From the NCBI GenBank assembly GCA_036787775.1, contig DAIQOR010000005.1, forward strand, positions 12,289 through 44,288: a stretch of DNA of 32,000 bases, given 5' to 3'. Each line of letters begins with the position of its first letter. Position 1 is the stretch's first letter. Under the pieces are notes generated by a model. It saw nothing but the letters and a program-made list of their open reading frames with translations. It did no database searches and was not told where the DNA came from. The translations under genes and the position numbers were made by a program. This DNA comes from a bacterium. Its GTDB lineage: Archaea; Nanobdellota; Nanobdellia; Pacearchaeales; GW2011-AR1. Positions 2,818 to 29,248 of the stretch are shown piece by piece.

Positions 2818-3981
2818 ATGTTTGGAAAACTAAAAGAAAAACTCGGAAATTGGACAAAAAAATTCTCAAAGAAAGCAGAGGAACAAGTCGAAGAAAATAT
2901 TGAAGAAGTCAAACAAGAAACAATAAAAGAAATTAAGAAAAAATCAATCCAACCCGAGGAAAAAACATTAATCAAAACGCCCGATTTGAAAACTCCAGAA
3001 GAAGTAAAAATTATTCAAAAAGAAATTCTAAAAAAAGAAACTAAATTAAAACCGATCAAAGAAATCTCGGAAGAAGACCTTAAAGAAAAACCCGAGCCAG
3101 GAAAAGAATCTTTTTTCAAAAGAGTAACTTCAAAAATAAATAAAATAAAAATAACTGAAAAAGATTTCGAAATTTACTCGGACGAATTAGAAATGCTACT
3201 TTTAGAAAACAACGTTGCCTTGGAAGTCGCGGAAAAAATGGTCAAAGATTTGAAAGAAAGAATTGTCGGACAGGAATTTTTAAAAAAAGAAGTTGAAGAC
3301 CAAATAAAAGAAATTTTCAAAGATATAATCACAGAAATTTTAATTGAACCATTTGACATCGCTGAAAAAATAAAAGAAAAACAAGACAAACCTTATGTGA
3401 TTTTATTTTGCGGAATTAACGGAACAGGGAAAACTACCAGCGTCGCCAAAATTGCAGAATCTTTAAAAAAACAAGGATTAACTTCAGTATTAGCCGCCGG
3501 CGACACTTTCCGAGCTGCATCAATTGAACAACTACAAACTCACGGAGAAAAAATCGGTGTAAAAGTTATCGCTGGAAACTACGGCTCTGACCCAGCATCA
3601 GTCGGCTTCGACGCAATTCAATACGCGAAAAAAAACAAAATCGATTGTGTCTTAATCGACACCGCAGGAAGAATCCACACATCAAAAAATCTTCTAAAAG
3701 AAATTGAAAAAATTGCAAGAATCTGCAAACCTGATTTGAAAATCTTTGTTGGAGAAAGCATCACGGGTAACGACGCAGTCGAACAAGTCAAAACTTTCAA
3801 CTTCGAAATCGGAATAGACGGAATAATTTTATCCAAAGCCGACATCGATGAAAAAGGCGGAACAGCACTCAGCGTCGGTTATGTAACAAAAAGACCGATT
3901 CTATATTTAGGAACAGGACAAGAATATGAAGCCATAGAAAAATTTGATAAAGAAAAATTTATTGAGAAGTTAGGGTTGTAG
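2818..3981 (+). CDS. ftsY: signal recognition particle receptor FtsY
   Basis: 387 aa with a Lys/Glu-rich A domain followed by an NG domain. Motifs seen: GINGTGKTTS (G1), DTAGR (G3) and LSKADIDEKGG (G4-G5). Confidence 0.92.
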   Translation: MFGKLKEKLGNWTKKFSKKAEEQVEENIEEVKQETIKEIKKKSIQPEEKTLIKTPDLKTPEEVKIIQKEILKKETKLKPIKEISEEDLKEKPEPGKESFFKRVTSKINKIKITEKDFEIYSDELEMLLLENNVALEVAEKMVKDLKERIVGQEFLKKEVEDQIKEIFKDIITEILIEPFDIAEKIKEKQDKPYVILFCGINGTGKTTSVAKIAESLKKQGLTSVLAAGDTFRAASIEQLQTHGEKIGVKVIAGNYGSDPASVGFDAIQYAKKNKIDCVLIDTAGRIHTSKNLLKEIEKIARICKPDLKIFVGESITGNDAVEQVKTFNFEIGIDGIILSKADIDEKGGTALSVGYVTKRPILYLGTGQEYEAIEKFDKEKFIEKLGL

Positions 3982-3988
3982 AAGATGG
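3953..3988 (+). repeat. left copy of an imperfect direct repeat (ftsY 3' end plus following start region)
   Basis: aaaaatttattgagaagttagggttgtagaagatgg here versus aaaaatttattgagaaattgggattgtaatgaagatgg at 4792-4829. That is 3 mismatches and one 2-nt indel. Confidence 0.75.
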
Positions 3989-4728
3989 CATATTTCTTTA
4001 GTTTAATAACAATTTTCATTGCAATAATTATCCTAATTTTTACAATCATTTATTATTTCAAACACTTTAACAAACAAAATACAAAGATAGAAAAACTTTG
4101 GAAAGAAAGAAAAATTACAAGCCATAATCTATTTGAAACGCATAAATATAATAACAAACAGATATTAATACAACAAATCTCTCTAACTTTTACGGGATTG
4201 TTAATAATAACAACTCTTTTAATAGGACTTTATTCAACTCACGAGCAAATTAATATTGCAAACAAAAACTTAGAACAATTCAAAGAAACTCAAAGTTCAA
4301 ATTGGGCAGATGTAGAAATAAATTATAGAACACCTCCTGAGAAATTTTTTGTAGTTGATTCCAAATGTTTAGCAAACATAGATTGTTCAAAACATATAAG
4401 TTTAATTGCTATTAATTCTGGAAAAATCAACACAGGAGAAATTTATCTAGATTTTCTTCATGGAGACAATTTATTTGAAACTGAAATTAGTCCAAATACT
4501 TTCATGAATATTACTCCAACCTCTGCAAAATATCTTGATATAGAAATTAACCAAAAAAATTGCAATAAAAATACTCCTTCCTTATGTGATGAGACCAAAC
4601 TTCCTTCAGGGAGATATAATTTAACAATTCAATTCAAATGTGATTTTTGTAAACCAGAACAAAGAGAGGGCATTAATTTTATAATCCCCATATGTGTTTA
4701 TCGTTATTCATATTCAGATTGTAATTAA
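3985..4728 (+). CDS. hypothetical membrane protein (2 TM segments plus a Cys-containing extracellular domain)
   Basis: 247-aa ORF starting 4 nt after the ftsY stop. Hydrophobic segments: FFSLITIFIAIIILIFTIIYYF and LTFTGLLIITTLLIGLY. I recognise no family. Confidence 0.5.
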   Translation: MAYFFSLITIFIAIIILIFTIIYYFKHFNKQNTKIEKLWKERKITSHNLFETHKYNNKQILIQQISLTFTGLLIITTLLIGLYSTHEQINIANKNLEQFKETQSSNWADVEINYRTPPEKFFVVDSKCLANIDCSKHISLIAINSGKINTGEIYLDFLHGDNLFETEISPNTFMNITPTSAKYLDIEINQKNCNKNTPSLCDETKLPSGRYNLTIQFKCDFCKPEQREGINFIIPICVYRYSYSDCN

Positions 4729-4791: not shown

Positions 4792-4829
4792 AAAAATTTA
4801 TTGAGAAATTGGGATTGTAATGAAGATGG
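4792..4829 (+). repeat. right copy of the imperfect direct repeat (relic of the ftsY 3' end)
   Basis: It encodes a relic ...KFIEKLGL-stop identical to the FtsY C-terminus, within a short ORF MRDSQQKNKKFIEKLGL. Confidence 0.75.
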
Positions 4830-4848: not shown

Positions 4849-5301
4849 ATGGTAAACAAAAATCAGTTTAAAATATATATTGATGAAGATTCTATTGAAT
4901 TTGGAGAACATCTAAAAGAAGAACATAACTTAAATGTAATTCTTCCCAAAAATTTTGGTAAAAGTATTCCTGATGAAGTCCAACTAAGATTAGCTAATTC
5001 TCAAAGAGCATTTATTCTTACAAAAAATAAAAAACATTTTTTAAATATGCCAAATATTTTTGATAAAATTGGAGATGGAGGAATAATTATTTGGAATACA
5101 AATAATTATCGAGATATTTGTGATTATATCATTTGTTTATGCGGATGGAGGAGTTTTAAATTAAAAGGTAAAATTTACATTCTAAATAATGAAGGAATTT
5201 TTATTCATTCAAAAGAAGGAAAGTCAAATATTAAAACGCATAAACCTTGTGAATTGTGCCAAGAGAAATGTAAAATCAGAGAAAGAAAATTTTTACCTTA
5301 G
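4849..5301 (+). CDS. hypothetical protein with a DUF5615-like (PIN-like) N-terminal domain and a Cys-rich tail
   Basis: 150 aa. KIYIDEDS..FGEHLKEEHNLNVI....GKSIPDEVQLRLANSQRAFILTKNKKHF resembles the DUF5615 pattern (F..DE...L...L...G..V......D..I...A.....l.T.D.DF). The C-terminus contains CxxxxCxC and CxxCxxxC. Confidence 0.4.
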   Translation: MVNKNQFKIYIDEDSIEFGEHLKEEHNLNVILPKNFGKSIPDEVQLRLANSQRAFILTKNKKHFLNMPNIFDKIGDGGIIIWNTNNYRDICDYIICLCGWRSFKLKGKIYILNNEGIFIHSKEGKSNIKTHKPCELCQEKCKIRERKFLP

Positions 5302-6002: not shown

Positions 6003-6245
6003 ATGTCTAAAAGAAGTTCATTTGATATAAAAAAGAAAATTTTAGAGTTAAGCAAATCTGAGAAAACATTTGCAGAATTAGAAAGAAAAATAAATACGGG
6101 ATTTAATACAATAAAATCTAATTGTGAAGAATTAGAAAAATTTGGATTTATAGAGATTAAAAAAGAAAAGAAGCACGAGAAAAATGGGCGTCCATTTTTT
6201 ATAATAAAAATAACTGAACAGGGAAGAGATTTTTTGAAAAAGTAA
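6003..6245 (+). CDS. small winged-helix DNA-binding protein
   Basis: 80 aa. KKKILELSKSEKTFAELERKINTGFNTIKSNCEELEKFGFIE looks like the HTH plus wing of ArsR/MarR-like wHTH proteins. It is convergent with the PIN gene. Confidence 0.5.
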   Translation: MSKRSSFDIKKKILELSKSEKTFAELERKINTGFNTIKSNCEELEKFGFIEIKKEKKHEKNGRPFFIIKITEQGRDFLKK

Positions 6246-6254
6246 AATCTTAAA

Positions 6255-6806
6255 TTAGCTCAATTTATCTAAAAATTGCTTTATCCCAATTATTTTTAAA
6301 TTAAATTCTTTTGATAAACTTTCCATTTTTCTAAGCTGATTGTCCTTCGTTATAAAAAAATCACATTTATTTTTCTTCGCTTGTAAAATTAAGATTATAT
6401 CCATAAATCCAAAGCCTTTTTTAGAAAGATTTTCTATTTTTTTAAAATCTTCCTTCGTTAAATCTTTAGTTTCTCTAATGCAATATTTCCATATATCAAA
6501 AACTGCTTGACTTACTAATTTATTTTCTTCCGAAGTTAAAAATATTTCTTTTCTTGCATCTCCAAATTCTCTCGTAGAATATCCAGATTCTACAAATTTT
6601 TGTTCCAATCTTATAAATCTAACAACATTTCTTAATTCAAGTTTACTCCATTGGCTCATAACATTAAAAAATTTCCCTGATTCAAAACTATCTAATAATT
6701 CCTCACTTCTCTTCAAAGGAATGGGAATATTTTTCTGTTTATCCCTTTTAGAATAAATTAAAAAAAAATTCACCAATACACATGTATCCAACATTACCTT
6801 ATACAT
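6255..6806 (-). CDS. PIN-domain protein (putative VapC-like nuclease with an insertion)
   Basis: 183 aa. It has an N-terminal MLDTCVL (first PIN acidic residue), an internal FMDIILILQA, and a C-terminal FFITKDNQL (the T.D motif). Confidence 0.5.
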   Translation of the reverse strand: MYKVMLDTCVLVNFFLIYSKRDKQKNIPIPLKRSEELLDSFESGKFFNVMSQWSKLELRNVVRFIRLEQKFVESGYSTREFGDARKEIFLTSEENKLVSQAVFDIWKYCIRETKDLTKEDFKKIENLSKKGFGFMDIILILQAKKNKCDFFITKDNQLRKMESLSKEFNLKIIGIKQFLDKLS

Positions 6807-7072: not shown

Positions 7073-7402
7073 ATGAAAAATTATTCTTATGAAGAAGATT
7101 TGGATATTCTATACATCTACAATAATCCAGAAAAAGAAAAAGTTATAGGAAACATGGTTTTAGGAAATTTCGTTTTGGATGTGGGAGAAAATGGAAAAAT
7201 TTTAGGGATTGAAATTGATTGTGCATCAAAGTTTTTTAAAATATCACCCGAACAATTAGGTAATCTAAAAACAACATCTATTGAAGTAATAAAATTTGGG
7301 AACATGATAACTTTAGGATTACTTTTGACAACAGAAATGAAAGAGTATCATTTTCAATTTGCAATGCCTCAAAAAAATAAAGCACCAATTATTTTTTGTT
7401 AA
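7073..7402 (+). CDS. DUF2283 family protein
   Basis: 109 aa. YEEDLDILYIY ... VLDVGENGKILGIEIDCASKF matches the DUF2283 pattern (YD.e.D.lYI ... D....G.i.GIEI..AS). Confidence 0.6.
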   Translation: MKNYSYEEDLDILYIYNNPEKEKVIGNMVLGNFVLDVGENGKILGIEIDCASKFFKISPEQLGNLKTTSIEVIKFGNMITLGLLLTTEMKEYHFQFAMPQKNKAPIIFC

Positions 7403-7775
7403 ATTCTCTCTTTAACCATTTTCCTACTTTTTTCTTTAACTTCTTTTCTTGCCTTGTCCAATCATAATAAGCATTAAAAAATTTAGGAGGGATTTCATCA
7501 AGATAAAAACATAAAACCAGAGTTTTTGCTTCTTCAAGCTTATACCTAAAAGAATACTTAAACCCCTTCTGTGCTGGGCGTTTGAAAACTCCAATAATTT
7601 TTTCAAATTGATAAAAAACTTTCTTCACTTCATCAAGTTCAACCCCATGTTTAAGATAACTATTTCGATTAAAATAAGGATGGATTTTAAAATATTCAAA
7701 CCCCTTACATTTCAAAAAATTTATTTTCTCAATCGCTTCCCCATCACTCAAAGGAATATCTACCTCGTTTTGCAT
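7389..7775 (-). CDS. hypothetical protein, BrnT/DUF497- or DUF4258-like toxin candidate
   Basis: 128 aa. FKIHPYFNRNSYLKHGVELDEVKKVF resembles the BrnT motif (W...K...N..KHGV.F.EA..VF). A later stretch, LVLCFYLDE....FNAYYDWTRQEKK, resembles the BrnT C-terminal strand-helix region. Its 3' end overlaps the DUF2283 gene by 14 nt in convergent orientation. Confidence 0.35.
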   Translation of the reverse strand: MQNEVDIPLSDGEAIEKINFLKCKGFEYFKIHPYFNRNSYLKHGVELDEVKKVFYQFEKIIGVFKRPAQKGFKYSFRYKLEEAKTLVLCFYLDEIPPKFFNAYYDWTRQEKKLKKKVGKWLKREFNKK

Positions 7776-18944: not shown

Positions 18945-19430
18945 ATGCAAAGAACTTTAGTTTTGATAAAACCCGAAGGTGTCAAAAGACATTTAGTTGG
19001 AAAAATAATTTCTCGATTTGAAGATGCAGGTCTAAAAATTATTGGAATGAAACAAGTTTGGGTTGATAAAGAATTTGCAAAAAAACATTACACCGAAGAT
19101 ATTGCCGAACGACGAGGAACAAAGGTTAGAGAAATGCTTTTAGATTATATTATCGAAGGTCCTGTAGTGGCTTTTGTACTTGAAGGAGTAAATGCAATTG
19201 AGAACGTTAGAAAAATTGTAGGAGGAACTGAACCCAAATCCGCACCACCTGGAACTATCCGAGGAGATTTTGCACATGTTAGTTACAAATACGCAGATTC
19301 AAATAATCTTCCAGTAAAAAATTTAATTCACGCATCCAGCGACGAGAAAGACGCGAAAAATGAAGTCGCACTTTGGTTTTCAAAGAAAGAGCTTAACACT
19401 TATCAAACAATTCAAGATTTGTTAATGTAA
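18945..19430 (+). CDS. ndk: nucleoside diphosphate kinase
   Basis: 161 aa. Motifs seen: RTLVLIKPEGV, GTIRGDFA, and NLIHASSD containing the active-site His. The TATA box tttttaaaaa lies 25 nt upstream. Confidence 0.9.
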   Translation: MQRTLVLIKPEGVKRHLVGKIISRFEDAGLKIIGMKQVWVDKEFAKKHYTEDIAERRGTKVREMLLDYIIEGPVVAFVLEGVNAIENVRKIVGGTEPKSAPPGTIRGDFAHVSYKYADSNNLPVKNLIHASSDEKDAKNEVALWFSKKELNTYQTIQDLLM

Positions 19431-19466
19431 AAATAGATTTATAAATATTTGAATTCTTTTTATAAA

Positions 19467-19736
19467 ATGAAAAACGGTGAACTTTTAAGAAAAAAATTAA
19501 TTAGCCATAAAAAATTAGCACAAGAAAGAACAATTCTTGCAAATGAAAGAAACACTCTCGCATATATAAGAACAGGATTTGGATGTTTCGCCTTAGGAAT
19601 TGCATTAATCAAATTATTTGAAGAACATATAAAATATGTTTATGGAGGTTACATCGCTCTCGGAATAGGAATAATCTTCATCTCCCTTGGATTAATTTAT
19701 TATCCTTTAAGGAAAAAAAGAATTTTAAAATATTAA
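19467..19736 (+). CDS. DUF202 (YidH-like) small membrane protein
   Basis: LAQERTILANERNTLAYIRTG is the DUF202 signature, followed by two TM segments. I prefer the ATG at 19467 over the non-ATG track start at 19449. Confidence 0.7.
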   Translation: MKNGELLRKKLISHKKLAQERTILANERNTLAYIRTGFGCFALGIALIKLFEEHIKYVYGGYIALGIGIIFISLGLIYYPLRKKRILKY

Positions 19737-19787
19737 ACTTCTCCGTCGACAACAAACATTTATATACTTCTTTTCCCTCGATAAATT

Positions 19788-20159
19788 ATGGAAAATTTAA
19801 CATTTGAAAAGATAATTGAAAAATTTAATATGAAAAATGATTTAACAAATAATCCAAACATCTGGATGGGTCACGCAAAAATTGGTTATCGTGGAAGAAT
19901 TAAAATGATGGAAACAAAAGAATTACTTTCTAAATATTTCCCAGAACACATTCCTGAAAACATCCCGACTCCTGAAGAACTAAAAAAAACTTTGGCTCAA
20001 TGGGAAAACGCACACCCATTTCAACATGTAAGAGAAGAAGACCAACCAATGTTCATAAAAAGAAAAGGAAATAAAATAGAAATCGCGGTAATCTGGCCTT
20101 GGCAAATGAAAGAAGGCGTCGCAAGTTTAATGTTATATAAAGGGGAAATTTTGGATTAA
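19788..20159 (+). CDS. hypothetical protein
   Basis: 123-aa ORF with no family recognised. Its last 52 nt form the left copy of a perfect direct repeat. Confidence 0.5.
   Translation: MENLTFEKIIEKFNMKNDLTNNPNIWMGHAKIGYRGRIKMMETKELLSKYFPEHIPENIPTPEELKKTLAQWENAHPFQHVREEDQPMFIKRKGNKIEIAVIWPWQMKEGVASLMLYKGEILD
20108..20159 (+). repeat. 52-bp perfect direct repeat, left copy
   Basis: gaaagaaggcgtcgcaagtttaatgttatataaaggggaaattttggattaa is identical to 20683-20734. Confidence 0.95.
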
Positions 20160-20193
20160 GATAATTTTATAAACTTTACAAATATAAAAAAAT

Positions 20194-20367
20194 ATGGAAA
20201 ATGAGACAATAAATGTTACAAAAGAAGAATTAGAAGATTTTATGAGACAAATCGAAGGAATCAAGTCAACAATAGAAATTCTACAAAATAAAGAAATAAT
20301 GAAAGAAATTGAAGAAAGTGAAAATAATATAAAAAGTGGAAGAATCAAAAGATTAGAAATTCAATAA
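20194..20367 (+). CDS. small antitoxin-like protein (Phd/YefM C-terminal-like or RelB-like)
   Basis: Hand-found 57-aa ORF: MENETINVTKEELEDFMRQIEGIKSTIEILQNKEIMKEIEESENNIKSGRIKRLEIQ. The stretch TIEILQNKEIMKEIEESENNIKSGR resembles the ETLEIL.dpElm..i..s.edik.Gr motif of antitoxins paired with RelE/YoeB. The TATA box ttttataaa lies 25 nt upstream. Confidence 0.45.
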   Translation: MENETINVTKEELEDFMRQIEGIKSTIEILQNKEIMKEIEESENNIKSGRIKRLEIQ

Positions 20368-20618
20368 ATTTTATGAGAACCTACTGATTCTATATAGATT
20401 ATTTTTCTTAAATCATCAATAGAGTAAATCATTCTTATATTTGAACCTAACCAGCAAGCCCACTTCCTTAATAATTTTCCATGCAAAGGATGCGCTCCTA
20501 TTTCTTTTCTTGGATTTTGTTTTAATCTAATTAGTTTATTCTTTATATCCTTTCTGGTATTTAAATATCCTTGAATAATTTTTTCAGATTTTGAATTTGC
20601 AAAATATATTTCATACAT
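20361..20618 (-). CDS. relE: RelE/ParE-family type II toxin
   Basis: 85 aa. HPLHGKLLRKWACWLGSNIRMIYSIDDLRKIIYIESVGSHKIY fits the RelE/StbE pattern (L.G.l.g....r.g.yRiiY.id.....i.i..vg.H..vY). The TATA box tttataaa lies 25 nt upstream. Confidence 0.7.
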   Translation of the reverse strand: MYEIYFANSKSEKIIQGYLNTRKDIKNKLIRLKQNPRKEIGAHPLHGKLLRKWACWLGSNIRMIYSIDDLRKIIYIESVGSHKIY

Positions 20619-20682
20619 AATTAAGAATTAATTTTTAAGTTTATAAATGTCAATGTATTAATTATATAATTTACTTTGTAAG

Positions 20683-20734
20683 GAAAGAAGGCGTCGCAAG
20701 TTTAATGTTATATAAAGGGGAAATTTTGGATTAA
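20683..20734 (+). repeat. 52-bp perfect direct repeat, right copy
   Basis: Identical to 20108-20159. It is a non-coding duplicate of the 3' end of gene 19788..20159. Confidence 0.95.
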
Positions 20735-20947
20735 TCACCAACTTCTAGAACGAGCTTCATCGATTAATCTTCTCCAACATTCATCACAATGAATTCCTGA
20801 ATCCGAAGTATTATCAATTCTTCTTTCTCCTTCATTAGAACATTGAACTAATTTTCCATTTTCATCAACAACAGAATATCCATTTTCTTTCCTTTGATAG
20901 GATTCACAAATTCCTTTCATCGGTCTTAGATAATTATCTTTCACCAT
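20735..20947 (-). CDS. small hypothetical protein with four Cys (possible zinc-binding)
   Basis: 70 aa with Cys at ...GICE..., ...VQCSN... and ...HCDECW.... Confidence 0.4.
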   Translation of the reverse strand: MVKDNYLRPMKGICESYQRKENGYSVVDENGKLVQCSNEGERRIDNTSDSGIHCDECWRRLIDEARSRSW

Positions 20948-21037
20948 TTCATTAATTACCTTTTTCTCTTTTTAAGAATTTATATTCTCCAGTTTCCCCT
21001 ACCCAATTTTAATTTATTTTTTAAAAAGAGTGTAAAA

Positions 21038-22111
21038 TCATTCATCACAAACTCCAGCTTCAGTAACCCAAAACACACATTCATTGTCTGGAAGATTTGG
21101 ACTATCAATTAACTTCGCAACTCTCGAACCTTTCTTTCCTCTTCTCAAATAAACTCTATAAGTAGAAGCATGCCCAACAATATTTCCTCCAATTGCCGTC
21201 GTCGGATCACCAAACATCATCGCAGGATTTGACATAACTTGATTTGTAACATACACAGCTATATTATGTGTCTCTGCAAGTCGCATTAACTCGTGCATAT
21301 AACGATTCAATTTTTGTTGCCTATCTGCAAGTTGCCCTCGCCCCGCAAACTCTGCCCTAAAATGTGCCGTCAAAGAATCAATAATCATCAACCGAATCGG
21401 CTCCCCGTTCTTAATCATATCACTAACTTTTTCCAAAAGCAAAATCTGATGGTCAGAATTAAATGCCCTCGCAACCAAAATATTTTTCAAAACTTTTTCA
21501 GGATTCGCTCCTTTCGCCTCGGCAATTTGTTTAATTCTCGCGGGCCTAAAAGTTCCTTCAGTATCAATAAAAACCGTTTTACCATTTGCTCCACCCATTT
21601 CTAAAGGCATTTGTACATTCACCGCTAAAGTCGAACCCAACTGAGTTTTCCCCGAACCAAAAGCCCCGAACGCCTCAGTAATCGCCCGACTTTCCAACCC
21701 TTTTCCACCCAGAAGCTCATCAAATTCTTTACTTCCTGTTGTAATATAATTAATATTCTCCCGCTTCTTCGCAAATTCAACTCCATCAGTAAAACCTAAA
21801 CTCAATAAATCTCTCGCTGCAAGAATTGCTTTTCGTGCAACCGCCGAACCCACGCCCGCCGTATCAGCCAAAACCGCCGGACTCATAACAGCCAAAGACA
21901 TCAAATCAAAAATTCCCGCACTCTCTAATTTCGAAGCAACCGCAGGACCAATCCCCGGCAAATCCGTCAAAGTCGGCTCTTTACTTTCCTTAACTTCCAC
22001 AACTTTTTTTTTCTTAGATTTAGATTTCACCTCTTCAACTTCCAAATCCTCTTCAATCATCTCTTCCCCAGAAACAGCATCCTTAATCTTTTGAACATCA
22101 ACATCAACCAT
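21038..22111 (-). CDS. radA: DNA repair and recombination protein RadA
   Basis: Motifs seen: HhH (LTDLPGIGPAVASKLESAGI), Walker A (GAFGSGKTQ), Walker B (LMIIDSL) and a C-terminal ...GGNIVGHASTYRVYLRRGK. I moved the start to MVDVDV (22111) because a tttataaata box (22133-22142) lies inside the longer track ORF, 26 nt upstream of this ATG. Confidence 0.93.
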   Translation of the reverse strand: MVDVDVQKIKDAVSGEEMIEEDLEVEEVKSKSKKKKVVEVKESKEPTLTDLPGIGPAVASKLESAGIFDLMSLAVMSPAVLADTAGVGSAVARKAILAARDLLSLGFTDGVEFAKKRENINYITTGSKEFDELLGGKGLESRAITEAFGAFGSGKTQLGSTLAVNVQMPLEMGGANGKTVFIDTEGTFRPARIKQIAEAKGANPEKVLKNILVARAFNSDHQILLLEKVSDMIKNGEPIRLMIIDSLTAHFRAEFAGRGQLADRQQKLNRYMHELMRLAETHNIAVYVTNQVMSNPAMMFGDPTTAIGGNIVGHASTYRVYLRRGKKGSRVAKLIDSPNLPDNECVFWVTEAGVCDE

Positions 22112-22132
22112 AAAAGAAAAAACCCTTCCCAG

Positions 22133-22142
22133 TTTATAAATA
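22133..22142 (-). promoter_or_regulatory. radA TATA box
   Basis: atatttataaac in the minus sense, 26 nt upstream of the MVDVDV start. Confidence 0.55.
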
Positions 22143-22164
22143 TTGTACAATTCCCAAATATAGA

Positions 22165-22663: not shown

Positions 22664-22996
22664 CTAACTTTTCAAAAAAGAACAAACTTCATTGAGAATA
22701 TTTGAAAAAGAATTTTTATTTAAACTTCCAATTTTATATTTTATCAAAGATTTTTCTATTGATGCAATTTTATCTATTCTAACAAAACTATCTCTTTTCA
22801 AAGAACCTTTCAAAAAATCTTTTTCTTTAATCAAAACTTCAACAGATTTTTCATAAGAAGATCCTGTTATTTGAAGCACAATTAAATCATCTCCTTTGGG
22901 GCATTTCAAAACCAAAACAGGTCTTCTCTTAACTCCAATTAAATTAGAAAAAGGAAAACTCACAACAAGCAAATCTCCAGCTACAAATCTCTCCAC
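22664..22996 (-). CDS. mazF: MazF/PemK-family type II toxin
   Basis: 110 aa. AGDLLVVSFPFSN....KRRPVLVL ... IVLQITGS ... VRIDKIASIEKSLI matches the PemK fold pattern. It overlaps the upstream antitoxin gene by 16 nt. Confidence 0.75.
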   Translation of the reverse strand: MERFVAGDLLVVSFPFSNLIGVKRRPVLVLKCPKGDDLIVLQITGSSYEKSVEVLIKEKDFLKGSLKRDSFVRIDKIASIEKSLIKYKIGSLNKNSFSNILNEVCSFLKS

Positions 22997-23202
22997 GCTT
23001 CATCCTCTTTATCATTAAGCCACAATTTTGCAAAAGATTTTTCAGAAAGAATCGCACTCTCCGGCAAAGACCTCTTCAAAACAATTTCATCATCTCGCTT
23101 AAGAATTATTAATTTATCTCCTTCTTTTATTCCCTGCCTCATCGCCAAAGGAATAACCACTTGTCCTCGAGAACTCATTTTTGTAACATCAATATCAACC
23201 AT
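22981..23202 (-). CDS. mazE: AbrB/MazE/SpoVT-type antitoxin
   Basis: 73 aa. SSRGQVVIPLAMRQGIKEGDKLIILKRDDEIVLK is the swapped-hairpin AbrB motif. Confidence 0.8.
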   Translation of the reverse strand: MVDIDVTKMSSRGQVVIPLAMRQGIKEGDKLIILKRDDEIVLKRSLPESAILSEKSFAKLWLNDKEDEAWRDL

Positions 23203-24616: not shown

Positions 24617-27600
24617 TTACAATTCAACATTCTCAAACAAACTTCCCTTCAAACACAAATCACCATCAAAATCAATATAACTCATGTTTGTGAAAGTTGA
24701 ATCTTGAATAATAAAAGCATCTCTTGAAGGATTACACGTCGCTGATTGATCTGAACAATCTCCAGTCACCAAACATAAATCTCCTGTAGAATTAATAAAA
24801 GCTACATTATTGTTTGTTGAATTTCTTATAATAAAACTATCTGCCCCAGGAGAATTACAAGTTCCTCCCGAAAAACAACTTCCTGCTAAAACAATATTTC
24901 CTTCATCTCCAAACCATGCGACAATTTCTCCTAAAGAATTTTTATGAGTGAATTTGTATGTATCGGGTAAAACAAAATTACATGCTAAATCACAATTTCC
25001 AGTTCCCGCAACGATGCCCTCACATCTTGAATCTGCAGTACATCCAGAATCAAATGTACTATTTCTACAAACATTATCTCTATCTTCCCCTCCAGCTACG
25101 GAAGTGCATTTATCTGCAAAATAAGGTTCTCCAGAAAAACAAGTTGTTATATTATCTCCTGTTGTTTTTCCATCACACAAAAATTCGTCACAAGAACAAC
25201 CTGCCTCAGCACATTCAAATACAGAAGTAATATCTTGATAAGAACATGTAGAACTACATTCATCTTCGTAGTAAGAAGTGCCTGAACATAAATTAAGGTC
25301 ATCTCCAGTCTGTCTTTCGTCACAATTTACATGACCCGAACCAATTGAGTATTCACAATAGCTTGTCTCTTGCCCATCAAAATAAGTATTGTAAGGAGTA
25401 AAACACCAACCATCATCTCCCAACCCAACTCCATCATCATCACAATATCCCGAACTACATTGAGAATCACTTATACATGATTGACCATTTGATTTATCAC
25501 TAACACAATCCCAATTTGACCAACTACTACTTTTATCACAATACTGATTCGCAGAACAATCACCATCATCAAAACAATTTAAGACATAAATGGAATTACC
25601 TACCCCATAATTAGGACTAAAAGGATACCACCATATCCAACAAGCCTGTTCAAGGGTATCATCATAACCAAGAATCTCATTGCGATAAGCTGTTCCAGGT
25701 GCAGTAATAGTAACCATCGTATCCTCATCATTTATTTCGTCACAATCACACCCTCCATACTCACAATCATAATCACCATCGCAATCATAATACATCTGCT
25801 GAGCATCAACATCTTTCCACCCTATTTTATATTCATCTATAACATAAGGGTCCCAAGCATCATTTACAGCACCCCATTCAATATCATTAACATTCTCATA
25901 TAAATTTTGAGCGATACTTACATCACAATCTTCATAAGAAGATTCTATACAAAACTCATATCCAGATTCTTCACAATCTTCAACTGGTGCTTCTTCCTCT
26001 TCACAATCCTCATCATAAACACACTGGCTTTCAGTTGCACATACATCGGGAGTACAATCTCTCGTCCATTGCTTTTGACTAGCACTACAACTTCCTCCTC
26101 CACATGAACCTTCTGACCAGCTACTGCAACTACAACTTGTAACATCAACCCATATTGGATTTGTATATGCTCTTCTTCCAGTATCAGTGTAAACTTCAAG
26201 TCTAATATAATCATCACTTGTATCTAAATCTATATCAAAAGAGCCAGAATAAGTGTCATCAGATACAGGGATATAATCATAGAATTGATCATTTAGATAA
26301 ATATAGATATAAGTTATATCACCAAATTCTCCATTACTTGACGCACTGATATCTAAGGTGTTAATTCCTGACATTGCATCAACCACACTTCCAATTATGT
26401 TCCCATCAAGGGTGAATTGCACAAATGGACCTGTAGATGCAATGCAGTGTCCATCTTTATAAGATTCTCTTATCGCACTTGTTGTAAGAGTTTCAGAATC
26501 TAAATAACAATAAGTGAAGGTATGTCCTACCTCGCTAATTTGGTGTGCATCACTTCCTGCTATGCCGACTATAAAACCATTATCGGGATTTGTCTCAGCA
26601 ATAAGTAAATCTTCCCATTGATTAATTGTTTCTTGGTCACCCCCTTCAAAAATCCCATCTTTAGCATTAATAAGTTCCAACCCAGAATATCCTGTAACTG
26701 ACCAGTCTTCCCAATTTAAATAATAAGGGAATCCATCATAGGGATGGGCAATAAAACCAATGCCTCCTGCATTCTCCACCTCATCTATTACATCTTGTGC
26801 ATCACGACAACCACTATTCCAAAACGTACAAGTTCCGTCAATATAACCCAAATTATCATCTGAAGAAGGATGAGTTAAATAATGGGCAGCATCGTTGATT
26901 CCAGGAGCATCAACAGCCATTTCCTGACCATACAAACATTTGAATGATGAAGTGCTGTTTCCAACACATGAATTATATCCTCCATTCCATTCTTCACTAT
27001 CGAGATAGTTGCTATGGTCTGTAAAAATAACCCAATCTAATCCCTCACTAATACTCTCATCAATCATCTCTGATAATGGAACAGATCCATCATAAGCTAT
27101 ATCTGTATGCATATGCTGGTCACCCACGTACCACCCAGGAGAATTGTGTGGGGGCGTTGGTAAAGGCTCTGAAATAAGGATTGTATGATTTATTTCAACG
27201 ATATATTTTTTATGATTATAATAAATTTTAAGTTCTAAAGGAATTATAACTATGTCCCCCACATTTAAGGAATCACTAAAATCATTTATATTCAAATAAA
27301 AAGCTTTTGAAAAACTTTTGAATCTAACTTCGTTTCTTAATCTTTTTAGCTCTAATTTATTTTCTAAAGAGCTCAATTTTAAACTATCTAAGCGATCTAT
27401 TTGCTCTTTAACAGGAAGAATATTTTTATTTATTGTAAATTCTCTTATCTTTTCTTTTTTGGGAGAGATAATTTTTATTTTTTCAATAGAAGCGTTGTCT
27501 TTCCCTAAATTCGTTATTGTAGGTTTTATAATAAAAATATCTCCAGAACGTAGAGCACTTGAACCATCAAGAGTTATATTTAGAAATGAAATTTCCTCTT

Positions 27601-27676
27601 CTGAGTTTTGTGCATAGGTAAGAGGGACAAGTAATATTAAAAATATCAAAATTAATAAAAAATTAGTTTTTATCAT
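24617..27676 (-). CDS. large secreted protein: signal peptide, Ig/CARDB-like domain, PHP (CehA/McbA-like) phosphoesterase domain, beta-rich domain, and a ~500-aa Cys-rich region with a triple C-terminal repeat
   Basis: 1019 aa. Signal peptide: FLLILIFLILLVPLTYA/QN. PHP metal-ligand motifs: WYVGDQHMHT, DWVIFTDHS, GFIAHP and GSDAH. About 46 Cys (hand count) lie after residue ~515. The C-terminus repeats the motif (V/S)(A/Y)(W/F/I)(F/I)(G/N/D)xxG(N/D)(I/L)(V/C)L three times. Confidence 0.7.
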   Translation of the reverse strand: MIKTNFLLILIFLILLVPLTYAQNSEEEISFLNITLDGSSALRSGDIFIIKPTITNLGKDNASIEKIKIISPKKEKIREFTINKNILPVKEQIDRLDSLKLSSLENKLELKRLRNEVRFKSFSKAFYLNINDFSDSLNVGDIVIIPLELKIYYNHKKYIVEINHTILISEPLPTPPHNSPGWYVGDQHMHTDIAYDGSVPLSEMIDESISEGLDWVIFTDHSNYLDSEEWNGGYNSCVGNSTSSFKCLYGQEMAVDAPGINDAAHYLTHPSSDDNLGYIDGTCTFWNSGCRDAQDVIDEVENAGGIGFIAHPYDGFPYYLNWEDWSVTGYSGLELINAKDGIFEGGDQETINQWEDLLIAETNPDNGFIVGIAGSDAHQISEVGHTFTYCYLDSETLTTSAIRESYKDGHCIASTGPFVQFTLDGNIIGSVVDAMSGINTLDISASSNGEFGDITYIYIYLNDQFYDYIPVSDDTYSGSFDIDLDTSDDYIRLEVYTDTGRRAYTNPIWVDVTSCSCSSWSEGSCGGGSCSASQKQWTRDCTPDVCATESQCVYDEDCEEEEAPVEDCEESGYEFCIESSYEDCDVSIAQNLYENVNDIEWGAVNDAWDPYVIDEYKIGWKDVDAQQMYYDCDGDYDCEYGGCDCDEINDEDTMVTITAPGTAYRNEILGYDDTLEQACWIWWYPFSPNYGVGNSIYVLNCFDDGDCSANQYCDKSSSWSNWDCVSDKSNGQSCISDSQCSSGYCDDDGVGLGDDGWCFTPYNTYFDGQETSYCEYSIGSGHVNCDERQTGDDLNLCSGTSYYEDECSSTCSYQDITSVFECAEAGCSCDEFLCDGKTTGDNITTCFSGEPYFADKCTSVAGGEDRDNVCRNSTFDSGCTADSRCEGIVAGTGNCDLACNFVLPDTYKFTHKNSLGEIVAWFGDEGNIVLAGSCFSGGTCNSPGADSFIIRNSTNNNVAFINSTGDLCLVTGDCSDQSATCNPSRDAFIIQDSTFTNMSYIDFDGDLCLKGSLFENVEL

Positions 27677-27977: not shown

Positions 27978-29248
27978 TTATAAAATCTCCGAATGATTCT
28001 CTCCCGATGCTTCAGTATAATGTGCATCACTTCCAGCTGTTCCTCGAATAAAACCATCAGAAGGATTTGTTTCTTCCTCTAAAAATTCAACCCAAGAATC
28101 AGTAACTCCTCCCGGGTTATTTATTGCAAGCGCATCATCTCCACTAAATCCCCCATTAATAATTTCTAATCCCGTAAAACCAGTAAGTGACCAGTTCCAA
28201 TCAAACATATCATTATGAGGATGTGCAACAAATCCTATTCCACCCGCATTAGTTATTTCATTTATAACTACCTGCTCATCATCACGACACTCACATTGAA
28301 ACCATCCACAATATCCATCAACATATCCAAGATCATCATCATCATCAGAACTTGGATGAGCTAAATAATGACGATTTTCCAAAGTATCACACACCAAGGA
28401 ACCTCGCCGATAGACATCTCCTGACCATATAAACATTTGAAAGAACTTGTAGACTCTGAATCACAAGCATCACGCCCATCTTCCCATTCAGATGCTTCTG
28501 AAAAAGCAACACTATGATCTGTAAAAATTATCCAATCCATCTCAGACGCTTTCGCAGCATCCACCATATCATCAAGAGGATCTGGAGTTTCGGCAAGAGT
28601 AGAACCAAACTCACTATGAACATGCTGATCTCCAACATACCAACCAGGAGAATTATGTGGAGGCTTTGGTAACGATTCAGAAAACAAAACCGCCCTTTCT
28701 CTACGAACAACATATTTCTCACCATCAATCTTAAACTCAATGTCAATTGAAATATTAATTAATTCTCCAATCTCCAAAGTATCATCAAAATCTCTTATGT
28801 CTAATCTAAAACTTTTTTTAAAAGTTTCATTTTTAATTTCAGAAATAATTTTTATATATTCTTGATATTCTGGCTGTTCTTCAGTTAATCCAGGAATTTC
28901 ACAAAATTCTGGTTTCTGTAAATAATCTCTTATTTCTTCCTCTCGTTTAAGAATTTTCTTCAAAGATTTAATTTCTTTATTAATATCCTCTGCCTTAATT
29001 ATTTTTTTACCATCGTTTAATATTGTTACTTTTTTAATATCCAGTGTTAAATTTTCATTTAAATTTCTAATTGTTATCGAAGCTGGAAAAATATTCCCTG
29101 TTCTAATTACCGACGAACTATGAAACTCTACAAAGATATCAATATCTTCGCTTGGTTTTGATGCGGAGATCGTGGAAATGTTCAAAACTATAACTAAAAC
29201 AAGAATTGCTATTAAAAAATTTGTGCACTTTCTTTTATTGATTTTCAT
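27978..29248 (-). pseudogene. frameshifted, shorter paralogue of the secreted PHP protein
   Basis: Track ORFs 28361..29248 and 27978..28436 overlap in different frames. Together they align with residues ~1-400 of the 1019-aa protein (PPHNSPGWYVGDQHVHS, DWIIFTDHS, FKCLYGQEMS | HYLAHPSSDD, GGIGFVAHP, GSDAH). The frame change is near 28400 (...GQEMSIGE / GSLVCDTLENRHYLAHP). Confidence 0.65.

Follow-up and report, generated by a model that had tools for sequence, protein, structure and literature searches.

Insertion-duplication of the Campbell type, in which a circular DNA bearing a short homologous segment enters by a single crossover, is a familiar laboratory tool, used in insertion-duplication mutagenesis and in pop-in/pop-out procedures. 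Homology-facilitated illegitimate recombination, in its classical form, deletes recipient DNA beside the homologous anchor. This second process has been put forward as the origin of stacked effector-immunity arrays and of Rhs orphan arrays (PMC5361080), where de Vries & Wackernagel 2002 and Prudhomme et al. 2002 are cited as papers on it. For the locus reported here, no matching description was found in the literature on direct-repeat-flanked toxin-antitoxin cassettes in archaea, nor in that on convergent type II systems in DPANN.

The locus belongs to a groundwater DPANN archaeon and lies within a stretch of 32,000 nucleotides that was analysed as a whole (hereafter the window). Its features are as follows.

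19788 to 20159, plus strand: gene123, encoding a conserved 123-aa DPANN hypothetical protein; left border of a variable gap.
20108 to 20159, plus strand: repeat copy 1 (R), where gene123 ends in its functional form (last 52 nt, TAA stop included).
20160 to 20193, plus strand: promoter region of the antitoxin; a TTTATAAA box occupies 20166-20173 and precedes the ATG by 21 nt.
20194 to 20367, plus strand: 57-aa putative antitoxin, a short form similar to the C-terminal, toxin-binding part of Phd/YefM.
20361 to 20618, minus strand: 85-aa RelE/YafQ/YoeB-like putative toxin, convergent with the antitoxin, with a 7-nt overlap.
20619 to 20682, minus strand: promoter region of the toxin; a TTTATAAA box occupies 20640-20647 and precedes the ATG by 22 nt.
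20683 to 20734, plus strand: repeat copy 2 (R'), a non-coding remnant of the gene123 3' end.
20735 to 20947, minus strand: 70-aa gene, the second gap occupant, whose stop abuts R'.
21038 to 22150, minus strand: RadA recombinase gene (Pfam Rad51, E=4.5e-92), the conserved right border of the gap.

Within the window, the 52-mer GAAAGAAGGCGTCGCAAGTTTAATGTTATATAAAGGGGAAATTTTGGATTAA has two exact copies and no more, one at 20108-20159 and one, on the same strand, at 20683-20734; a repeat of this length is not expected by chance (0 in 100 shuffles). The perfect 52-bp direct repeats that a first-pass annotation of the sequence had described around an insert were thus confirmed, exactly at both positions. 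Allowing one mismatch (AATG vs AAGG) lengthens the match to 55 nt. Between the copies lie 523 bp, with the 57-aa and 85-aa ORFs and nothing else; a toxin and a small antitoxin-like gene as sole contents, each with its own TATA box, had been proposed earlier and this is what was read from the sequence. Copy 1 encodes the C-terminus of the gene123 protein (KEGVASLMLYKGEILD), which is conserved across the protein family, and copy 2 directly abuts the stop of the 70-aa ORF on the minus strand. The novel, illegitimate joint is located at 20682|20683, on the outer edge of the toxin promoter region, with a possible microhomology of 2-3 nt at most. An Rfam scan of positions 19000-21500 gave no matches.

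The 85-aa ORF scored 27.4 bits against TIGR02385, just under the 27.9 cut-off, and matched Pfam YafQ_toxin with E=0.0011. More than 286 homologues were found, many carrying the NCBI names RelE/StbE; PF15738 is present in most of them, and the profile of the toxin family matches the structures of YoeB and HP0892 with E about 1e-3. As for the 57-aa putative antitoxin, it is devoid of a DNA-binding domain. A 49-aa homologue matches positions 36-69 of Pfam PhdYeFM_antitox (E=0.0035), and a 75-aa form present in relatives has an N-terminal ribbon-helix-helix domain (E=0.0013). A small convergent antitoxin-like ORF adjoins 63 unique related DPANN toxins, the stops overlapping by 4 nt in 39 of these 63 loci and by 7 nt in the window. 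The convergence and 7-nt overlap of the two genes had not been stressed in the earlier annotation. The two promoters are linked by an inverted repeat (I15), made of the two TATA boxes, and no other was found; a palindrome, AAAGTTTATAAACTTT, is present in the homologous antitoxin promoter of locus L040. The pair does not form the single operon of type II toxin-antitoxin systems, the genes being convergent with separate TATA boxes. RelE-fold toxin homology, together with an adjacent small protein bearing a probable toxin-binding segment, places it in the RelE/YoeB/YafQ superfamily. We conclude that the cargo is a predicted type II toxin-antitoxin pair of unusual, conserved convergent design.

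Homologues of gene123 of about 123 aa were found 54 times in Pacearchaeota/Woesearchaeota, and in relatives the gene lies between NDK and RadA. As anticipated by the first-pass annotation, the gap between gene123 and radA is empty in several relatives, the two genes being directly adjacent in L020, L022, L024, L025 and L026. It contains unrelated 130-, 83-, 91- and 289-aa genes in L017, L021, L125 and L019. A homologue search with the 70-aa protein returned itself as the sole match, and because it has no homologues, this gene cannot be used to find the ancestral arrangement. An empty site, with a single 52-mer in gene123 followed by the 70-aa gene and no cassette, had been suggested as a check; it was not found among the longest contigs carrying the exact 123-, 85-, 57- and 70-aa proteins. 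The same look-ups did not yield a donor allele, with gene123 and the toxin-antitoxin pair in the absence of R' and the 70-aa gene. An exact search for the repeat core in metagenome and viral contig collections, which apparently do not include the source samples, gave 0 matches. It is equally possible that copy 2 and the 70-aa gene, rather than the cassette, were the incoming piece.

The comparison was extended to about 70 related loci, and bracketing was counted in 53 unique cassette loci. Tight direct-repeat bracketing was observed for 9 of the 53 related cassettes, compared to none of 162 control positions, placed at arbitrary sites of these loci and not at other accessory genes; the pattern therefore recurs. 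Permuted flank pairs were bracketed in 0 of 150 cases. The excess at the cassettes has a Fisher p of 2e-6, and comparison of flanks gave direct matches in 30 loci and inverted ones in 4. At 12 loci the repeats measure 24-133 nt, a fivefold range, and have unrelated sequences, taken from gene 3' ends, from a promoter-containing intergenic region or from a CRISPR repeat. The cassette ends, by reading the sequences, are variable as well (about 4-25 nt outside the TATA boxes) and share no end sequence, and inspection by eye revealed no motif common to the joints or to the repeats. The closest relatives of the cassette, L124 (81%) and L126 (75%), have no bracketing repeats. The same type of scar was found on non-homologous cargo, namely MazEF in L072, rubrerythrin in L085 and, in the window itself, a 247-aa membrane protein after FtsY.

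Three properties of these scars bear on how they were formed. The first is the gene order of L040, ParA-P-gene132-M'-P'-toxin-antitoxin-M-MetRS, where P and M are the 3' ends of the ParA and MetRS genes, P' and M' are their second copies, and the M'|P' joint has a GTTT microhomology. This order is impossible to obtain by target-site duplications; it is exactly what would result if two homologous molecules that differ in their gap contents were linked by one joint. The second concerns the outer border of the repeat relative to the stop of the gene upstream of the antitoxin. Its offset is 0 in the window, L098 and L040, 1 in L073 and 2 in L094; repeats of L080 and L068 also start with TTA, where the ORF check placed no stop. 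The third is the distribution of differences between functional copy and remnant, which number 13, 12 and 38 at codon positions 1, 2 and 3, with 20 synonymous versus 11 non-synonymous differing codons. This third-position bias (chi-square p=3e-5, or 1e-3 without L068) exceeds only modestly what a mixed model would give, with a remnant free to drift and a functional copy that accepts silent changes only (p=0.01). The copies therefore seem to have diverged as working alleles before being joined. Such a signature of purifying selection between the copies is expected of insertion-duplication, and is uninformative for the event in the window, because its two copies are identical.

We give somewhat better than an even chance to an origin of the scar by homology-anchored additive recombination, either as a Campbell-type insertion-duplication or as one illegitimate joint between homologous molecules with different gap genes. 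Two homologous DNA molecules would have met in one cell, the first having gene123 followed by the toxin-antitoxin pair, the second gene123 followed by the 70-aa gene. Joining would have consisted of homologous pairing in gene123 and a single illegitimate joint, which connects the upstream edge of the toxin promoter (20682) with the other gene123 at a position (20683) lying 52-55 nt short of its stop. By one route, an R-antitoxin-toxin fragment would circularise and integrate by a single RadA-type crossover within R (Campbell-type); by another, an unequal crossover between two chromosome copies would lead to the same product. In this product gene123 would be intact, both gap occupants would be kept and a dead copy of the gene end would be left. 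We infer the donor, the form of the intermediate and the enzyme, which would be host RadA with repair functions, as well as a role for addiction: losing the pair would release the toxin, so that recombinants adding DNA, not replacing it, would be favoured. Enrichment of scars at these cassettes could be explained in this way.

The length and sequence of the repeat are arbitrary and taken from the target locus, as in insertion-duplication. Our explanation for the stop-codon borders is that, in very compact genomes, alleles cease to be homologous there; a mechanism aimed at gene ends might also account for them. A homology of 52 bp is short for RadA-type recombination, and this counts against the proposal, as do the failure to find a donor allele or an empty site and a joint with at most 2-3 nt of possible microhomology. 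The first-pass annotation had envisaged integration of a circular intermediate by site-specific or homologous recombination; the homologous alternative is favoured by the data, and the site-specific one is not, as there is no shared repeat sequence, shared length or fixed ends. Its remark that the scar is far longer than a transposase duplication holds. Taken together, the sequences suggest that the 52-bp repeat is not the footprint of a dedicated mobile-element enzyme.

A different possibility is insertion in one step: both ends of a free cassette fragment, coming from somewhere unrelated, would have been attached with duplication of 52 bp of target, much as in a target-site duplication of great and variable length. 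Illegitimate end-joining or template switching could have done this, as could the filling-in of a long staggered break, with the possible help of an unknown enzyme acting in trans. The perfect repeats of the window and the near-perfect ones of L094, L098 and L080 fit such an event, as does a cassette that adjoins a CRISPR array and has, on the side away from it, a partial repeat of 24 nt, and the cassette must once have reached new loci by a homology-independent route. A single insertion step cannot, however, yield the M'-P' order of L040, nor does it predict the third-codon-position bias. The stop-codon borders are left unexplained, since a duplication into the neighbour gene should be equally viable, and there are no fixed ends or length. 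We judge this reading unlikely.

A novel minimal selfish cassette, of about 500-575 bp from promoter to promoter, was also considered. It would insert as a small circle after the stop of a gene codirectional with the antitoxin, by means of a trans-acting or host activity duplicating tens of bases of the gene end. Its footprints would be the outer borders at or near stop codons and the D-R-B junction of L015, where the cassette is found in another context. This L015 contig was set aside as probably chimeric, because of its low coverage (1.49x) and of the jump in GC from 50% to 25% across the joints. That the cassette is a special mobile element, as first supposed, does not agree with the finding of the same scars around MazEF, rubrerythrin and other genes, and we judge such an element improbable.

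Still less probable is decay from a larger integrated plasmid or virus that lost its interior by deletion and kept only its two attachment sites and the addictive pair. When elements decay, a toxin-antitoxin pair is often what persists longest, and archaeal attachment sites typically have a length like that of the repeat. Against this, the insert is a minimal promoter-to-promoter unit with no other debris, the same minimal geometry is found at many loci with no common attachment sequence, and the toxin or cassette family had no matches in viral contigs.

Very little is left in favour of site-specific integration, in which the 52-mer would be the attachment site of a small circle and a tyrosine or serine recombinase would be supplied by a gene elsewhere. 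Duplication of a gene 3' end is what is seen at tRNA and protein-gene attachment sites, and L015 has a circle-type junction (D-R-B), on a contig which is probably chimeric as said above. The search for a recombinase suggested by the first-pass annotation gave nothing: no integrase or transposase was found in the cassette or among the ORFs of the 32-kb window by Pfam scan, in agreement with its description of a recombinase-less toxin-antitoxin insert. Repeats that are unrelated and variable in length, together with variable cassette borders, argue against any enzyme recognising a site or an end. An attachment core would be shared, and the repeats of the 12 loci are unrelated and differ fivefold in length; this lack of a common core largely refutes the site-specific reading. 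A transposon or MITE does not fit either, as there are no shared termini and the duplication length varies fivefold, nor does an integron, as the cassette ends have no conserved imperfect palindrome, there is no integrase and the host is an archaeon.

The chance that assembly or binning merged two strain variants via the shared 52-mer is negligible: several contigs do break inside or near the cassette (L006, L008, L032, L039), but over the full 1.9 kb the region shows 100% identity among contigs of at least 12 samples, produced by different assemblers, and assemblies with k=141, longer than the repeat, include both copies, their k-mers having to cover the unique joints on either side of copy 2. 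The arrangement is therefore not an assembly artefact, which the first reading of the sequence had named as a possible objection. An artefact due to a repeat of k-mer size was likewise discarded, 52 being no standard k and the k=141 contigs spanning the region. A second lineage, 1.7% diverged, carries the same junction and arrangement; the event is therefore not very recent, in contrast to what the identity of the repeats had first been taken to mean.

DPANN archaea have tiny, tightly packed genomes, and the way in which they gain genes is poorly understood. The scars would be direct sequence evidence of one such route, additive recombination between related genomes beside a conserved gene, which leaves a dated and readable duplicate of the gene end. 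If addiction drives their enrichment, a cell dying when the pair is replaced and surviving when DNA is added to it, toxin-antitoxin pairs would tilt recombination towards addition and cause variable loci to expand. A further outcome of the analysis is the definition of a large DPANN toxin-antitoxin family, whose genes are convergent and overlap at their stops in a conserved layout. This layout raises testable questions, namely how regulation proceeds without an operon, and how the short form works without a DNA-binding antitoxin.

The pair of the window resembles RelBE, YefM-YoeB and DinJ-YafQ in having a toxin of the RelE superfamily. Its antitoxin is similar to the C-terminus of YefM/Phd-type antitoxins, and a ribbon-helix-helix N-terminus is present in its relatives; unlike the antitoxins of these three systems, that of the window has no DNA-binding domain. 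RelBE-type genes form an operon with the antitoxin first, whereas the window pair and its relatives are convergent, with a 4-7 nt overlap of the stops and separate promoters. Integron cassettes, such as those of Vibrio superintegrons, and integrase-less satellites are also small, recombinase-less, often toxin-antitoxin bearing and prone to accumulate at a hotspot. The window differs from them in lacking an attC-like site, an integrase and a common core, and in having repeats that come from the target gene.

With Campbell-type insertion-duplication the likeness is closer. There too the direct repeats are the shared homologous segment, the target remains intact when this segment includes the 3' end, no dedicated recombinase is needed and the repeat length is arbitrary. 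Compared to the laboratory events, that of the window would be natural, with only 52 bp of homology and a putative 575-bp circle, in an uncultured DPANN archaeon. The stacked effector-immunity and Rhs/CDI orphan arrays (PMC5361080) combine one homologous anchor and one illegitimate joint, as in our model of the window, and in Rhs/CDI-type arrays modules are likewise added to a variable locus beside a conserved gene, with the old modules and fragments of that gene pushed downstream. Relative to the classical form of homology-facilitated illegitimate recombination, the joint in the window would fall inside the anchor, giving a duplication, the cargo is a putative toxin-antitoxin pair and the host is an archaeon.

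The perfect 52-bp direct repeats that the first-pass annotation had placed around a toxin-antitoxin insert were both found to be exact. The 52-mer has exactly 2 copies in the window, on the same strand, where 0 are expected by chance, and the match grows to 55 nt if one mismatch is allowed. The locus is organised as follows.

20108-20159, + strand: repeat copy 1 (R), 3' end of the 123-aa ORF 19788..20159 (gene123), stop codon included
20194..20367, + strand: 57-aa ORF (antitoxin), inside the bracket
20361..20618, - strand: 85-aa ORF (toxin), inside the bracket
20683-20734: repeat copy 2 (R'), non-coding, abutting the stop of the 70-aa ORF
20735..20947, - strand: 70-aa ORF, whose stop touches R'

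The insert between R and R', called the cassette below, consists of two convergent genes overlapping by 7 nt, and a TTTATAAA box is placed 21-22 nt upstream of the ATG of each. The repeat is real: an assembly artefact is ruled out by the 1.9-kb region being 100% identical across contigs of at least 12 groundwater samples, obtained with several assemblers (k=141 included).

Identification of the cargo rests on homology. The 85-aa ORF scored 27.4 bits against the RelE/StbE model TIGR02385 (cut-off 27.9) and E=0.0011 against Pfam YafQ, its profile matches the structures of YoeB and HP0892, and more than 286 homologues of 85 aa were found in DPANN archaea. A small convergent ORF accompanies the toxin in 63 unique loci, with a 4-nt overlap with the toxin stop in 39 of them. 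This antitoxin comes in two forms, one of 49-57 aa, similar in its conserved part to the segment of the Phd/YefM C-terminus that binds the toxin (E=0.0035), and one of 75 aa with an extra N-terminal ribbon-helix-helix domain (E=0.0013). By these matches, the cassette is classed as a bona fide type II toxin-antitoxin pair.

The first-pass annotation had suggested looking for such a cassette elsewhere. DNA upstream of the toxin was compared with DNA beyond the antitoxin in 80 fetched loci with toxin relatives, plus several obtained by exact protein look-up (L-numbers below denote such comparison loci or contigs). Flanks matched in direct orientation in 30 loci, and in inverted orientation in 4. 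A stricter test, using 300-nt flanks and ungapped scores, was applied to 53 unique loci; 9 of them, with tightly bracketed cassettes, outscored all 162 control positions from the same loci and all 150 permuted flank pairs (Fisher p=2e-6).

Examples of repeats bracketing related cassettes
L080: 123 nt, 96% identity
L094: 79 nt, 96% identity
L040: 60 nt, 90% identity
L065: 50 nt, 90% identity
L098: 30 nt, 97% identity
L073: 42 nt, 83% identity
L047: 72 nt, 97% identity; one more gene within the bracket
L061: 24 nt; one copy is a partial CRISPR repeat, the opposite one belongs to the first full repeat of a seven-repeat array

Among tightly bracketed loci, 12-62 nt separate the end of the remnant copy from the toxin ATG; the distance is 203 nt in L040 and 719 nt in L047, where the bracket holds extra DNA. 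The start of the other copy precedes the antitoxin ATG by ~30-60 nt in most of these loci, and by at least ~80 nt in L080, L065 and L105. What the repeats enclose is thus no more than the two genes plus their promoters. Repeat sequences are unrelated from locus to locus, and cassette borders vary. In L061 (contig Ga0209542_10000107), the cassette relative lies at the end of a CRISPR array with a 37-nt repeat in seven copies (3447-3921); the partial repeat (2929-2952) precedes the toxin ATG by 49 nt and may either have been left by recombination within the array or be a solitary repeat that serves regulation.

Direct repeats of 30-61 nt and 85-97% identity also bracket other genes.

Repeats bracketing other cargo
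L072: 2834-2863 / 3573-3602, 30 nt, 97%; MazEF pair
L085: 366-408 / 994-1036, 43 nt, exactly a stop codon, the intergenic promoter and an ATG; rubrerythrin
L089: 840-892 / 1643-1695; two convergent ORFs without known identity
L116: 4629-4689 / 6018-6078; 421-aa gene

Since like scars surround such unrelated genes, the process forming them is general. Toxin-antitoxin cassettes are an enriched cargo, as 12 loci with repeat pairs bracket the toxin despite the cassette making up only ~1/10 of the sequence surveyed. In the window itself, the final 28 nt of ftsY (2818..3981), which include its stop codon (3953-3981), are repeated with 89% identity at ~4792-4820, just beyond a 247-aa membrane-protein gene (3985..4728). 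This pair is another such scar, older than that of the cassette and with a non-toxin-antitoxin cargo. Two adjacent PHP-domain genes (24617..27676 and 27978..28436/28361..29248), probably paralogues or split genes, each contain one copy of a 53-nt direct repeat of 77% identity (26544-26596 / 28021-28073).

The window is an AT-rich archaeal chromosome segment (~30% GC) encoding RadA, NDK, SRP54, FtsY, a GINS subunit, and DHH/RecJ-like, eIF-2-alpha-family, RPA-like and PHP-domain proteins, and homologues of its proteins carry the names Pacearchaeota, Woesearchaeota or Nanoarchaeota. The gene123 product belongs to a conserved family; the C-terminus encoded by R is among its most conserved parts, so that R is the working gene end. 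In five relatives (L020, L022, L024, L025, L026) no gene separates gene123 from the convergent radA, and in others the space between them holds unrelated genes: of 110-130 aa in the closest relative, L017 (82% identity), 83 aa in L021, 289 aa in L019 and 91 aa in L125. This space is therefore a variable gap. The homologue search with the 70-aa gene found none anywhere. In L125 (105-335) the gene123 relative is cut to 76 aa and its N-terminus is unrelated, which suggests rearrangement also at the 5' side of gene123. The DUF202 membrane-protein gene between NDK and gene123 (19449-19736, + strand) is missing at that position in L017 and the other relatives, and is thus another lineage-specific insertion.

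Toxin-antitoxin-like pairs are abundant in this region, with similar clustering in L126 and L072. Further modules (DUF5615, PIN domain, DUF2283) lie at 4849-5301, 6255-6806 and 7073-7775. A MazF/PemK (22664..22996) and MazE-like pair (22664-23202, - strand) separates the YdjM-family and RPA-like genes, which are adjacent in L020, L022, L024, L025 and L026 and are separated by an unrelated 308-aa gene in L017. This site is a second variable gap with a toxin-antitoxin pair; no bracketing repeat was detected around it.

Three observations bear on how the brackets arose. The first is L040, whose order is ParA-P-gene132-M'-P'-toxin-antitoxin-M-MetRS, P and M being the ParA and MetRS 3' ends, and P' and M' their second copies. 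No series of target-site duplications yields M' then P'. A single joint would reproduce the fragment order exactly: a ParA-gene132-MetRS molecule would break 60 nt inside the MetRS end and join a ParA-cassette-MetRS molecule at a point 119 nt before its ParA end. A GTTT microhomology is present at this joint. Integration of a circularised fragment via one crossover is formally equivalent.

Differences between repeat copies were also informative. If duplication in place had left a dead copy to drift, its changes should be spread evenly over the codon positions; two alleles that diverged while both functional should show no such evenness. Third positions held 38 of the 63 differences, and 20 codon changes were silent versus 11 that were not (p=3e-5; 1e-3 without L068, a member of a multi-copy family). 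The excess is less marked when set against a mixed model (p=0.01). Together with the other cargo, these observations point to recombination of homologous molecules differing in gap content, and make an enzyme cutting and duplicating a target the less favoured explanation.

For the window, the order is A-R-B-C-D-R'-E, where A is the gene123 body, B-C-D the insert and E the 70-aa gene. In the simplest history two molecules, A-R-cassette and A-R-E, would have been joined at D|R', and homologous pairing in gene123 would supply the remaining step. Either the cassette or R'+E may be the later arrival. At several loci the repeat has its outer border at the stop codon of the gene that precedes the antitoxin: the offset is 0 in the window, L098 and L040, 1 in L073 and 2 in L094. 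We read this as the point where the homology of two alleles ends, because in these compact genomes the stop is immediately followed by the start of the cassette promoter; less probably, the borders were set by a mechanism directed at the ends of genes, which would be novel.

L123, from another sample, differs from the window region at 16 of 920 positions (1.7%), one substitution lying in copy 1, and has the same order, D|R' joint included. The event is therefore older than the window/L123 split, and zero differences in 52 nt are unremarkable at 1.7% divergence. The initial interpretation is partly supported: the absence of a recombinase stands, as no integrase or transposase was found in the 32-kb window; "recent" holds in a loose sense only, and of the two routes it offered, homologous recombination is favoured over site-specific recombination. 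Two contigs of sample 3300025121 (L032 and L039) stop inside the toxin gene, with ~126 nt of overlap, and L006 and L008 likewise end within the cassette, which may reflect strain variation, or a branch in the assembly graph, at this spot.

A third lineage, L015 (ERZ4902888 NODE_5817, coverage 1.49x), carries at 975-1506 a cassette ~99% identical but circularly permuted: window 20221-20682 is followed by one 52-mer and by window 20160-20177. Such a junction is expected for a circle or tandem copy formed when the two repeats recombine. The segment lies between DNA of 50% GC and DNA of 25% GC, and the 50%-GC part encodes a 169-aa N-terminal extension that continues in frame into the 3' part of the antitoxin. 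Either the contig is chimeric, which is probably the case, or a circle or tandem form landed elsewhere; if real, L015 would be evidence of recombination between the repeats and of a cassette able to move to other sites.

Among known systems, a site-specific integrative element, a transposon or MITE, and an integron cassette were each rejected on a tested defining feature: there is no recombinase in the cassette or the 32-kb window, no common core, no fixed ends, and no attC. The cargo fits the RelE superfamily by homology; the layout is conserved but, unlike that of type II operons, convergent. No description of this layout for protein antitoxins was found in the searchable literature. The proposed mechanism matches Campbell-type insertion-duplication. 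It also resembles homology-facilitated illegitimate recombination, the suggested origin of stacked T6SS effector-immunity arrays and Rhs orphan arrays (PMC5361080); in the window the joint would lie inside the anchor, hence the duplication. We conclude that the cassette, of relevance to archaeal genome evolution, is a variant of a known mechanism and of a known toxin-antitoxin type, both with new features.
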